DNA of 4,219 bases from Escherichia phage Qbeta, in the sequence record FJ483844.1; one strand, written 5' to 3'. The position numbers were made by a program, and so were the translations under genes. Under the pieces are notes generated by a model. That model did not search any database. It had not been told where the DNA came from and saw only the letters and a list, made by a program, of their open reading frames with translations. Shown piece by piece: positions 2,370-4,213 of the stretch. The stretch's first letter is position 1; every line of letters starts with the position of its first letter.

Positions 2370-4123
2370 CCTCGCGTAACTCTCTCAGCGCACAATTGCG
2401 CCGAGCCGCGAACACAAGAATTGAGGTCGAAGGTAACCTCGCACTTTCCATTGCCAACGATTTAATGTTGGCTTATGGTCAATCGCCATTTAATTCCGAG
2501 TCCGAGTGTATTTCACTCGGTCCGAAATTCGACGAAACCCCGGACAACTTTAGGATAAATTATCTTAAAGCCGAGATCATGTCGAAGTATGACGATTTCA
2601 GCCTAGGTATTGATACCGAAGCTGCTGCATGGGAGAAGTTCCTAGCAGCAGAGGCTGAATGTGCTTTAACGAACGCTCGTCTCTATAGGCCTAACTACAG
2701 TGAGGATTTCAATTTCTCACTGGGCGAGTCATGTATTCACATGGCTCGTAGAAAAATAGTTAAGCTAATAGGAGACGCGCCGTCCGTTGAGGGTATGCTG
2801 CGTCACTGCCGTTTTTCCGGTGGTGCTACAACAACGAATAACCGTTCATACGGTCATCCGTCCTTCAAGTTTGCGCTTCCACAAGCGTGTACGCCTCGGG
2901 CTTTGAAGTATGTTCTGGCTCTTAGAGCCTCTACGCACTTCGATATCAGAGTTTCTGATATTAGCCCTTTTAATAAAGCAGTTACTGTACCAAAGAACAG
3001 TAAAACCGATCGCTGTATCGCTATCGAACCCGGTTGGAATATGTTTTTTCAACTAGGTATCGGTGGCATCTTACGCGACCGGCTGCGTTGCTGGGGTATC
3101 GATCTGAATGATCAGACGATAAACCAGCGTCGCGCTCACGAAGGCTCTGTTACTAATAACTTAGCAACAGTTGATCTCTCAGCGGCAAGCGATTCTATAT
3201 CTCTTGCTCTCTGCGAGCTCTTGTTGCCTCCAGGGTGGTTTGAAGTCCTTATGGACCTTCGATCACCTAAGGGGCGATTGCCTAACGGTAGTGTCGTTAC
3301 TTATGAGAAGATTTCTTCCATGGGTAACGGTTACACATTCGAACTCGAGTCGCTTATTTTTGCTTCTCTTGCTCGTTCCGTTTGTGAGATACTGGACTTA
3401 GACTCATCTGAGGTCACTGTCTACGGAGACGACATTATTTTGCCGTCCTGTGCAGTCCCTGCTCTTCAGGAAGTCTTCAAGTATGTTGGTTTTACTACCA
3501 ATACTAAAAAGACCTTTTCCGAAGGGCCGTTCAGAGAGTCGTGCGGTAAGCACTACTATTCTGGCGTAGATGTTACTCCCTTTTACATACGCCGCCGCAT
3601 AGTGAGTCCTGCCGATTTAATATTGGTTTTGAATAACCTATATCGGTGGGCCACGATTGACGGCGTATGGGATCCTAGGGCCCATTCCGTGTACCTCAAG
3701 TATCGTAAGTTGCTGCCTAAACAGCTGCAGCGTAATACTATACCTGATGGTTACGGTGATGGCGCCCTCGTCGGATCGGTCCTGATCAATCCATTCGCGA
3801 AAAACCGCGGGTGGATCCGGTATGTACCGGTGATCATTGACCACACAAGGGACCGAGAGCGCACTGAGCCGGGGTCATATCTCTATGATCTCTTCTCTCG
3901 CTGTTTCTCGGAAAGTAACGATGGGTTGCCCCTAAGGGGTCCGTCGAGTTGCGATTCTATATATCGGTTTGCCGTTGACCAACTTATATGTAAGAGCAAT
4001 CCTACAAAAGTAAGCAGATCTACTGGGAAATTTGATATACAGTATATCGCGTGCAGTAGCCGTGTTCTGGCACCCTACGGGGTTTTCCAGGGCACGAAGG
4101 TTATGCCTCTACACGAGGCATAA
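2354..4123 (+). CDS. rep: RNA-dependent RNA polymerase, replicase beta subunit (589 aa)
   Basis: ATG at 2354 (track starts 3 codons earlier at ATG 2345), stop TAA at 4121-4123. N-terminus MSKTASSRNSLSAQLRRAANTRIEVEG matches Qbeta replicase as recalled. Canonical RdRp catalytic YGDD motif encoded at 3422-3433; motif-A-like VDLSAASD upstream. Third cistron as expected. Confidence 0.95.
   Translation: MSKTASSRNSLSAQLRRAANTRIEVEGNLALSIANDLMLAYGQSPFNSESECISLGPKFDETPDNFRINYLKAEIMSKYDDFSLGIDTEAAAWEKFLAAEAECALTNARLYRPNYSEDFNFSLGESCIHMARRKIVKLIGDAPSVEGMLRHCRFSGGATTTNNRSYGHPSFKFALPQACTPRALKYVLALRASTHFDIRVSDISPFNKAVTVPKNSKTDRCIAIEPGWNMFFQLGIGGILRDRLRCWGIDLNDQTINQRRAHEGSVTNNLATVDLSAASDSISLALCELLLPPGWFEVLMDLRSPKGRLPNGSVVTYEKISSMGNGYTFELESLIFASLARSVCEILDLDSSEVTVYGDDIILPSCAVPALQEVFKYVGFTTNTKKTFSEGPFRESCGKHYYSGVDVTPFYIRRRIVSPADLILVLNNLYRWATIDGVWDPRAHSVYLKYRKLLPKQLQRNTIPDGYGDGALVGSVLINPFAKNRGWIRYVPVIIDHTRDRERTEPGSYLYDLFSRCFSESNDGLPLRGPSSCDSIYRFAVDQLICKSNPTKVSRSTGKFDIQYIACSSRVLAPYGVFQGTKVMPLHEA
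2975..2981 (+). other. Internal partner site of a candidate long-range pseudoknot with the 3-prime-terminal hairpin loop
   Basis: Seen in sequence: AAAGCAG (2975-2981) is the exact reverse complement of CTGCTTT (4197-4203) in the loop of the 3-prime-terminal hairpin. A possible eighth pair is U2974-G4204 (G-U). Qbeta has a known long-range pseudoknot between its 3-prime hairpin loop and a site roughly 1.2 kb upstream that is needed for replication. Confidence 0.65.
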
Positions 4124-4131
4124 CCTGGGAG

Positions 4132-4148
4132 GGCGCCACTATGGCGCC
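4132..4148 (+). other. 3-prime UTR hairpin (GGCGCC stem, ACTAT loop)
   Basis: Seen in sequence: GGCGCC (4132-4137) and GGCGCC (4143-4148) are mutually complementary (palindromic 6-mer) around a 5-nt loop. Confidence 0.6.
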
Positions 4149-4149
4149 T

Positions 4150-4173
4150 AATTGTGAATAAATTATCACAATT
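4150..4173 (+). other. 3-prime UTR hairpin (8-bp AATTGTGA/TCACAATT stem, A/U-rich 8-nt loop)
   Basis: Seen in sequence: AATTGTGA (4150-4157) pairs with TCACAATT (4166-4173); loop ATAAATTA (4158-4165). Confidence 0.6.
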
Positions 4174-4185
4174 ACTCTTTAGAGT

Positions 4186-4213
4186 GAGAGAGGGATCTGC
4201 TTTGCCCTCTCTC
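4186..4213 (+). other. 3-prime-terminal hairpin (9-bp GAGAGAGGG/CCCTCTCTC stem, 10-nt loop), followed by single-stranded CTCCCA tail
   Basis: Seen in sequence: GAGAGAGGG (4186-4194) pairs perfectly with CCCTCTCTC (4205-4213); loop ATCTGCTTTG (4195-4204) contains the 7 nt complementary to 2975-2981. Confidence 0.7.

Follow-up and report, generated by a model that had tools for sequence, protein, structure and literature searches.

The ten-nucleotide loop of U1, the 3'-terminal hairpin of the Qβ-type genome analysed here, is complementary to eight nucleotides located inside the replicase gene at a separation of 1222 nt, and the pairing of these two elements is very likely the long-range replication pseudoknot already published for Qβ. 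In two later papers, the U1 loop of Qβ is described as pairing approximately 1200 nt upstream in an interaction essential for replication (PMC3561173, citing Klovins & van Duin, J Mol Biol 294:875 (1999)), and the pseudoknot is reported as essential for the initiation of the minus strand (PMC4176380, citing the same work). The original prediction, which had stated that such a pseudoknot is known in Qβ and needed for minus-strand synthesis, agrees with these accounts, the partners being identical at homologous positions; the identity with the element of 1999 was established from its published description, as relayed by these papers, rather than from its exact coordinates. The observation is thus correct but already known, the pseudoknot having been in the literature since 1999, so its rediscovery adds nothing new on the biology of Qβ. 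Its modest interest lies instead in the fact that the true partner can be told from a stronger-looking local decoy by synonymous-site invariance and accessibility, and in the uncultivated lineages, where there is a compensated change of a kind missing from the classical isolates.

The window, i.e., the whole stretch of 4,219 nucleotides under analysis (FJ483844.1), is a complete plus-strand genome of the Qβ type, and aligns with Qβ strain VK along its full length at a nucleotide identity of 93.3%. Its gene order is that of Qβ (maturation, coat/read-through, replicase), its open reading frames agree with the annotated genes and, judged by these identities, it is a new strain of Qubevirus durum, the overall divergence between laboratory Qβ and the window strain being 7-8%. 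The features discussed below are collected in Table 1.

Table 1. Positions in the window of the pseudoknot strands and of the elements around them
Feature	Start	End	Strand	Basis or remark
Replicase beta-subunit gene	2354	4123	+	contains the upstream pseudoknot strand; 96.8% amino acid identity to the replicase of Qβ strain VK
Internal replicase/S1 binding region (M-site), approximate	2545	2870	+	homology to SP only; ~105 nt 5' of the upstream strand
Hairpin directly 5' of the linker, GAUAUCAGA/UCUGAUAUU	2942	2962	+	alignment columns 98-101/113-116; compensatory changes at two pairs
Predicted single-stranded linker holding the upstream strand	2963	2983	+	consensus fold of 11 genomes; between two local hairpins
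Pseudoknot upstream strand, UAAAGCAG	2974	2981	+	replicase codons N207-K208-A209-V210; pairs with 4204-4197
Small hairpin directly 3' of the linker, ACUGU ... ACAGU	2984	3001	+	alignment columns 139-143/152-156; pairs nearly invariant
Competing complement, AAGCAGAU	4012	4019	+	8 Watson-Crick pairs with loop 4195-4202; Qβ-type lineage only
U1 5' arm	4186	4194	+	fold
U1 loop, 10 nt, AUCUGCUUUG (also ATCTGCTTTG)	4195	4204	+	pseudoknot downstream strand is 4197-4204, CUGCUUUG
U1 3' arm	4205	4213	+	fold and comparison
3'-terminal tail CUCCCA, minus-strand start site	4214	4219	+	CUCCUCCCA invariant in all complete genomes

The two strands and the level of match expected by chance

U1 is formed by a 9-bp stem (4186-4194, GAGAGAGGG, with 4205-4213, CCCTCTCTC; -19.9 kcal/mol according to RNAfold), with compensatory changes at two of its pairs across Qubevirus, and by a loop whose core, UCUGCUU, is invariant in all the complete genomes compared. 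As in Qβ, it stands just before the terminal CCCA and its loop contains CUGCUUUG; the tail that follows is, in Qβ, the established site of minus-strand initiation (PMC4176380). Reading both strands confirms the complementarity originally predicted, as CTGCTTT (CUGCUUU in the RNA, 4197-4203) and AAAGCAG (2975-2981) are exact reverse complements, and also the flanking G-U pair that had been considered possible, since T2974 (U in the RNA) lies opposite G4204 and the wobble adjoins the 7-mer, giving a helix of eight pairs. As an isolated duplex, this helix (2974-2981/4197-4204) has an energy of -7.9 kcal/mol.

By itself, the 7-mer match is within chance and not significant: of 2000 dinucleotide-preserving shuffles of the genome, 39% contain one or more 7-mers complementary to the loop, which bears out the caution already expressed with the prediction, and 0.53 copies of the 7-mer are expected by chance in a sequence search. 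Therefore, it is by conservation, position and accessibility that the partner is singled out. In 15 aligned genomes, only 48 invariant 7-mers are found upstream of the hairpin, so that the chance matches to the loop expected among them drop to 0.008, a significance that needs comparative data.

Conservation of the upstream site

The upstream site and its codons are the same as Qβ 2972-2979 and the loop equals Qβ 4195-4202, elements that are also 1222 nt apart in laboratory Qβ. Synonymous positions included, the site is invariant at homologous codons in 15-16 Qubevirus genomes from both species of the genus, its distance to the loop being 1222 nt in group III and 1191 nt in group IV, and among the loop complements of at least 6 nt it is the only one present at a homologous position in all 15 complete genomes. 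No invariant nucleotide run of the replicase gene is longer than the stretch 2972-2982, one of the two that reach this length. Across this gene, the same codon is kept at only 38 of the 255 degenerate codons whose amino acid is invariant (a background of 15%), but N207, K208 and A209 are all kept, and consecutive triples of kept codons like this one are limited to 2 out of 102. The scan has a positive control in GAAAA (R24), a published kissing-loop partner, which it also picks out, in the run 2751-2758. The coding site is, hence, under a constraint at the RNA level, although part of its invariance is at the protein level, because the amino acids themselves (N-K-A-V/T) are conserved too.

The helix of eight pairs is unchanged in 14 of the 15 classical genomes and seven of its pairs never vary, which is why no covariation is seen within this set. 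The covariation in Qubevirus alignments that the original prediction had proposed as its check is, consequently, uninformative among the classical genomes, and it is in distant uncultivated relatives that a compensated change appears. As for uncompensated changes in relatives, which had been anticipated as evidence against the pairing, a single one was found: in strain HL4-9 the loop carries a U to A change opposite A2975. The change is confined to this strain and falls at the last pair but one of the helix; the pseudoknot model is not refuted by it.

Uncultivated lineages and more distant phages

Among the uncultivated Qubevirus-like lineages, two yielded a U1 hairpin in full; their replicase identities are 50% and 48%. 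Most Logan contigs of intermediate lineages end inside the 5' arm of U1, and the loops were read from the two lineages in which U1 is complete. In both of them, the pair G2981-C4197 is replaced by A-U, a compensated exchange that is probably a single evolutionary event common to the two. Other substitutions in the uncultivated lineages preserve pairing as well (U2974C keeps the pair with G as C-G, and A2980G keeps that with U as G·U), and one lineage shows a helix displaced by 2 nt, with C-G and A-U pairs gained. Each of the two loops pairs best with the site of its own lineage; within those contigs, the homologous site takes first or second place. In a set of 15 lineages, A209 is encoded by GCA or GCG and in no case by GCY, and AAA is the sole codon seen for K208. 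In uncultivated lineages with replicase identities of 49-71%, those that have ACN (Thr) in place of the V210 codon carry A at the equivalent of 2981. The covariation of loop and site gives the pairing modest phylogenetic support.

The searches were also extended to other collections. One of the lineages (P0008, the sole one so searched) has no matching record among GenBank phages. The replicase relatives in IMG/VR include SP, FI and one partial Qβ-like contig; the others do not exceed 43% identity and have incomplete 3' ends, which makes them unusable for the comparison of loops. A search of IMG/VR and metagenome contigs for U1-type hairpins with any loop (GGG-N10-CCCNCNCTCCTCC) gave random DNA, none of the matches listed being Qβ-like. 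Compared with the whole window at a threshold of E ≤ 1, the covariance models of Rfam, which cannot represent a pseudoknot of 1.2-kb range, gave no hit. A pairing position common to Fiersviridae was considered and rejected, since in six other phages (MS2, GA, PRR1, PP7, AP205 and M) the U1 loop finds no complement in the homologous codons.

These comparisons bear on the possibility that the complementarity is a coincidence, in which the site would be kept because it encodes N-K-A-V, where the conserved polymerase core starts, and the loop because it binds a protein (A2 in virions, or the replicase). The frequency of loop complements in shuffled genomes fits this reading, as do the lack of covariation in the classical genomes, the invariance of the amino acids N207-K214, the many distant replicase alignments that start exactly at the site, the recurrence of UGCUU-like loops in phages whose homologous codons are non-complementary, and the binding of U1 by Mat in the virion, where U1 mutants lose infectivity (PMC8880383). 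Nevertheless, conservation of the protein cannot explain why three synonymous positions in a row are invariant when the background is 15%, and coincidence leaves unexplained that the substitutions at 2974 and 2980 in 15 lineages are only pair-preserving, that G-C was replaced by A-U with compensation, and that a shift in register came with new pairs. The site is, in addition, predicted to be unusually accessible (see below) and, according to PMC3561173, the genetics of Qβ, with identical sequences, call the pairing essential. Coincidence is consequently considered very improbable.

Accessibility of the site and the neighbouring M-site

In fold predictions for the window, the probability that the eight nucleotides 2974-2981 are unpaired is 0.19, within the top 1.3% of the genome. 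Values of 0.14-0.23 (top 1-2%) are predicted in four of the five genomes folded (the window, Qβ, M11 and NL95), that of SP being 0.025. When the cost of opening is added to the energy of the duplex, the site reaches -6.9 kcal/mol, the best net pairing energy in the window. The modelled structures thus predict that the upstream partner is single-stranded, in an inter-domain linker; the one helix that the consensus fold places inside this linker is an implausible one of 2 bp made of invariant bases.

The linker lies close to the M-site, whose coordinates in the window are approximate because they were carried over by offset from SP, in whose record "replicase binding region m" is at 2629-2956 and whose pseudoknot site is at 3062-3069. 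This neighbourhood raises the alternative that the A-rich single-stranded AAUAAAGCAGU is kept as a binding site for a protein (e.g., S1, or the replicase beside the M-site) and not as the partner of the loop. The stretch is indeed A-rich, predicted to be single-stranded and ~105 nt from the M-site region, and elements close by, internal and either single-stranded or structured, are recognised by S1 and the beta-subunit (PMC4176380, PMC4678825). However, protein binding accounts neither for the concerted change of loop and site in two uncultivated lineages nor for the first rank of the site among the complements of the loop once accessibility is taken into account, and the two roles of AAUAAAGCAGU are not mutually exclusive. 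As a replacement for the pairing, this alternative is given the slimmest chance of those weighed here.

Rival partners of the loop

A longer perfect complement of the loop, missed by the original prediction, lies elsewhere: AAGCAGAT (4012-4019) matches ATCTGCTT (4195-4202) over 8 nt. U1 could then pair mainly with this segment, ~180 nt away, in a local pseudoknot that replaces the one with 2974-2981 or alternates with it. The eight Watson-Crick pairs of this duplex give -9.0 kcal/mol, compared with -7.9 for the helix with 2974-2981; the seven Qβ-type strains all preserve a helix of 8 bp here, with G·U wobbles in it, and the loop change of HL4-9 extends it to 9 bp and weakens the helix with 2974-2981. 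This retention is uninformative, though, since the variable positions of 4012-4019 are the third positions of two-fold codons (AGC/AGU and AGA/AGG), at which synonymous changes automatically keep wobble pairing. Furthermore, the segment is absent in M11, MX1 and all the group IV genomes, it is ~17 times less accessible (probability unpaired of 0.011 versus 0.19) and its net energy of -6.2 kcal/mol is worse than the -6.9 of 2974-2981. Laboratory Qβ has the same 4012-4019 helix, and the literature (PMC3561173) places the function at the distant site. Altogether, 4012-4019 is probably not the functional partner of the loop, and the local pseudoknot as its main pairing is highly unlikely next to that with 2974-2981.

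Two further complements were considered and discarded. AGCAGA at 2647-2652, a conserved alternative partner in appearance, is predicted to be fully paired (probability unpaired of 0.0001), and the complement found in group IV comes from neighbouring codons of the conserved AAEAEC peptide. The segment GAAGCGGGU (1457-1465) reaches -9.0 kcal/mol with G·U pairs and occurs across group III, but group IV lacks it and its opening costs 6.6 kcal/mol.

Proposed function and known long-range contacts

Under the preferred reading, the U1 loop (4197-4204) would pair with 2974-2981, in the single-stranded linker inside the replicase gene, and the resulting 8-bp pseudoknot would tether the 3'-terminal domain near the M-site, where the replicase holoenzyme docks. 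This tethering may present the 3' CCA end to the active site, so that the synthesis of the minus strand could start. By analogy with Qβ, the pairing presumably forms in the replicating RNA of the window strain and would be required there. Compared with the pseudoknot described in 1999 (as far as the later accounts relate it), the window has identical paired nucleotides at the homologous replicase position, the same separation of 1222 nt and the same U1 architecture; the helix is free of differences, and one pair of the U1 stem is A-U in the window and G·U in laboratory Qβ.

In the Qβ virion, U1 contacts Mat (maturation protein A2) and mutations in U1 abolish infectivity (Chang et al. 2022, PMC8880383), and the complete model of the virion RNA makes no mention of the pseudoknot (PMC8880383). 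Since U1 is bound by A2 in the packaged particle, the pseudoknot most likely belongs to the replication template and not to the encapsidated RNA. The contact with A2 involves the same hairpin and loop, but it is an interaction of protein with RNA in packaged particles, in which the tip of the loop is rearranged, and is presumably mutually exclusive with the pseudoknot (PMC8880383). The invariance of the loop could equally be due to the binding of the maturation protein, and the use of one loop in both contacts raises the question of a switch between replication and packaging. A tentative and rather unlikely extension would make the U1 loop a state switch that pairs with 2974-2981 in the template and is bound by A2 for packaging, with 4012-4019 as a possible third, decoy state in Qβ-type strains, and would have the pairing of loop and site co-evolve, with sliding of the register, across a much wider uncultivated Qubevirus-like radiation. 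If there were such a switch, the binding of A2, or of the decoy, would dissolve the pseudoknot and stop minus-strand synthesis.

Qβ also has a second long-range interaction, between the M-site region and the 3' domain (Klovins, Berzins & van Duin, RNA 1998; cited in PMC4176380), which in that summary serves the same purpose, namely to bring the 3' domain near the replicase site for minus-strand initiation, but as a separate helix made of nucleotides other than those of the pseudoknot. Outside Qubevirus, a putative U1 pseudoknot of phage M pairs UUGCU with AGCAA 1215 nt upstream (PMC3561173), its loop bearing a UGCU-type motif like that of the window. Other ssRNA phages have a loop complement 1.2-1.3 kb upstream in the replicase gene as well, as predictions only; MS2 and GA, for instance, have CAAGCAA at homologous codons, complementary to their own loops. 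However, the partner in these phages is ~47 codons 5' of the Qubevirus site, and their codons homologous to 2974-2981 are non-complementary. Finally, the kissing loops of the Qβ virion (2844-UCGU/1876-ACGA and 2811-UUUUC/2749-GAAAA; PMC8880383) are likewise short long-range contacts within coding sequence, with invariant nucleotide runs, although they are made of other nucleotides and have been proposed to act in the folding and packaging of the genome, as opposed to replication for the pseudoknot.

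The pairing and its identification

The window is the complete plus-strand genome (4219 nt) of a Qβ-type ssRNA phage with the standard gene order (maturation, coat/read-through, replicase). Qβ strain VK is 93.3% identical to it in end-to-end alignment and other Qubevirus durum strains 92-93%, and, since no closer database record than strain VK was found, it represents a new strain within a species that has been studied in great depth. No Rfam family matched any part of it. All annotated relatives start the replicase at the equivalent of 2354; an in-frame ATG three codons 5' of it (2345-2353) is why a mechanical ORF list begins the gene at 2345.

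The seven-nucleotide complementarity originally predicted between the loop of the 3'-terminal hairpin (U1) and a site inside the replicase gene is exact on reading the window, and the possible flanking G-U pair is present (T2974 opposite G4204), raising the helix to eight pairs, with 1222 nt between the strands and -7.9 kcal/mol for the isolated duplex. The warning that such a match may be due to chance was well placed: 39% of 2000 dinucleotide-preserving shuffles yield one or more 7-mers complementary to the loop, and the raw match, taken alone, is without significance. Moreover, a longer perfect complement had gone unnoticed, namely AAGCAGAT at 4012-4019 versus ATCTGCTT at 4195-4202.

Features of the long-range pairing in the window and in uncultivated relatives
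Feature	Position	Sequence or structure	Remarks
Upstream strand	2975-2981	AAAGCAG	
Loop strand	4197-4203	CTGCTTT	exact reverse complement of 2975-2981
Last hairpin, U1	4186-4194 with 4205-4213; loop 4195-4204	9-bp stem, 10-nt loop	RNAfold -19.9 kcal/mol
Hairpin 5' of linker	2942-2962		consensus fold, covariation-supported
Small hairpin 3' of linker	2984-3001		consensus fold
Clade-specific helix	1457-1465		group III (Qβ strains, M11, MX1)
Clade-specific helix	4012-4019		Qβ-type strains
Clade-specific helices	~2617 and ~1058 (window-equivalent)		group IV (SP, FI strains, NL95)
Contigs L351, L352		loop UUUGCUUUG, site CAAAGCGA	replicase identity 50%; 8 pairs: C-G, three A-U, G-C, C-G, G·U, A-U
Contig L359		loop GUGUUGCUUA, site AAGCAACA	replicase identity 48%; 8 Watson-Crick pairs with UGUUGCUU

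The element is not new: judged against published descriptions of the Qβ long-range pseudoknot (PMC3561173, citing Klovins & van Duin 1999), the window pairing fits point by point and the paired nucleotides are identical. The observation is confirmed and its interpretation supported. In Qβ, according to a passage of PMC4176380, long-range interactions are thought to bring the 3' domain near the active site of the replicase docked via S1 on the M-site, an internal binding region; by offset from the SP annotation 'replicase binding region m', the upstream site lies ~105 nt 3' of it. Beyond the pairing, its conservation and its predicted accessibility, which were all established here, we infer from Qβ, with its identical paired nucleotides, that the helix arises in vivo and that replication depends on it.

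Conservation and constraint in cultured Qubevirus

The comparison covered 15 further genomes from both Qubevirus species (Qβ strains, M11, MX1, SP, FI strains and NL95), 14 of them with complete 3' ends. The terminal loop carries the core UCUGCUUUG at all complete 3' ends except that of HL4-9 (UCUGCUUAG), and a protein-guided codon alignment places AAT AAA GCA G at replicase codons N207-V210 in every genome, with freely variable third positions on either side. No other loop complement of at least 6 nt occupies a homologous position in every genome; this one lies upstream of the loop by 1222 nt (group III) or 1191 nt (group IV). Because seven of the eight pseudoknot pairs never vary in these classical genomes, they give no covariation either way (the formal pair count detects two compensatory pairs in the U1 stem), and the covariation anticipated for Qubevirus was found instead in two distant lineages, as a compensated change from G-C to A-U.

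The remaining pair deviates only in HL4-9 (FJ483841), where the loop at 4197-4206 reads AUCUGCUUAG in place of AUCUGCUUUG, a U to A change opposite A2975. Uncompensated changes in relatives had been named as evidence against the pairing, and this is the one seen: the upstream site is unaltered, six Watson-Crick pairs remain in the canonical helix, and the 4011-4019 helix grows to 9 bp. The change is a singleton, given that FrMerlot, the strain nearest to HL4-9, shows the usual loop, and it may reflect a sequencing error.

The coding site is constrained at the RNA level. No stretch of the replicase gene stays invariant over more nucleotides than 2972-2982, which ties for longest (16 genomes), and N207, K208 and A209 are all codon-invariant, one of just 2 such triples among 102, when the same codon is kept at 38 of 255 amino-acid-invariant degenerate codons (15%). 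Over the whole genome, U1 is preceded by only 48 invariant 7-mers, and chance alone predicts 0.008 matches to the loop complement among them. The scan of invariant runs also recovers 2751-2758, a positive control: this is the GAAAA bulge (R24), a kissing-loop partner in virion RNA (Chang et al., PMC8880383). Other invariant runs of 8-14 nt, synonymous positions included, were seen in 15-16 Qubevirus genomes (3035-3048, 3668-3678, 3767-3776, 3584-3591, 3539-3546 and 2613-2620); by analogy with 2751-2758, which matches a published partner, these may mark additional RNA-RNA or RNA-protein contacts.

The invariance of the loop, in turn, is not creditable to the pseudoknot alone, since the maturation protein binds U1 in the packaged virion and the loop thus has at least two partners. 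For that state the loop tip was modelled with additional G-C pairs and the RNA model is silent on the pseudoknot; mutating U1 abolishes infectivity (PMC8880383). The evidence specific to the pseudoknot is therefore the synonymous constraint on the upstream site together with the concerted changes in distant lineages.

Uncultivated relatives and covariation

A protein search yielded uncultivated Qubevirus-like replicases with 48-72% identity. The Logan and JGI contigs (L342-L360) comprise about a dozen Qubevirus-like lineages with near-complete genomes, most matching the read-through domain family (Pfam PF16814), and are intermediate between Qβ and SP on one side and the remoter leviviruses on the other; the GenBank phage collection, queried with the P0008 lineage alone, gave nothing closer than ~60% identity. 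In these relatives the homologous codons read AAY AAA GCR, then GTY or ACN: K208 is always AAA, N207 is AAU or AAC, and A209 is GCA or GCG, never GCY, so that the substitutions at 2974 and 2980 are exactly those keeping the pairs with G4204 and U4198.

Loops could be read in two lineages with the whole U1 hairpin (L351/L352 and L359), most other contigs stopping inside its 5' arm. In both, the Qβ pair G2981-C4197 has become A-U, probably through one event common to the two, and in L359 the helix is shifted by two positions: the two pairs at 2974-2975 are gone, and C-G and A-U have been added at the opposite end. Spacing is kept (1153-1223 nt), and each loop has its own site as best partner in a swap test. 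Ranked against other sites of its contig, the homologous one comes first in L351; in L359 it comes second and is the sole all-Watson-Crick 8-mer. This covariation is real, if modest.

In the JGI contigs L351 (~3540-3560) and L352 (~54-95) the 3' end (…CCCCUCC) is followed directly by that genome's own 5' end (GGGGUAGGG…), which preserved the complete U1 hairpin; the junction looks head-to-tail, and may be an artefact of assembly or a remnant of concatemeric RNA. L342 carries at 1-1037 a tyrosine-rich ORF resembling, by eye, a eukaryotic storage protein, with no tblastn match in six reference ssRNA phage genomes or the window, and is probably chimeric.

Accessibility and rival sites

By local partition-function folding, the upstream 8-mer falls in the most accessible 1-2% of the window and of Qβ, M11 and NL95, against 12% in SP, and a consensus fold of 11 genomes sets it in a predicted linker (~2963-2983). 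With G·U allowed, several clade-specific helices equal or surpass the canonical one in raw energy; only the 2974 site is common to both species. Once the cost of opening is added, no site in the window has a more favourable net energy than 2974-2981 (-6.9 kcal/mol, against -6.2 for 4012-4019 and -2.4 for 1457-1465).

The perfect complement at 4012-4019 (AAGCAGAU), ~180 nt upstream of the U1 loop, forms a stronger raw duplex than the canonical helix (-9.0 kcal/mol), but its accessibility is ~17-fold lower. All seven Qβ-type strains keep it, with G·U wobbles, and M11, MX1 and group IV lack it. Its retention is uninformative because the variation falls on third positions of two-fold codons, at which every synonymous change leaves the wobble intact. 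It may be either a decoy or accidental.

In phages beyond the Qubevirus-like group, codons homologous to the site lack complementarity to the U1 loop. MS2 (2211-2217) and GA (2199-2205) both have CAAGCAA at mutually homologous codons of the replicase (Q-A-T), 47 codons to the 5' side of the position used in Qubevirus; it complements their U1 loops (UGCUUG and UUGCUUG), 1338 and 1246 nt downstream, respectively, and could be an Emesvirus counterpart of the Qβ pseudoknot.
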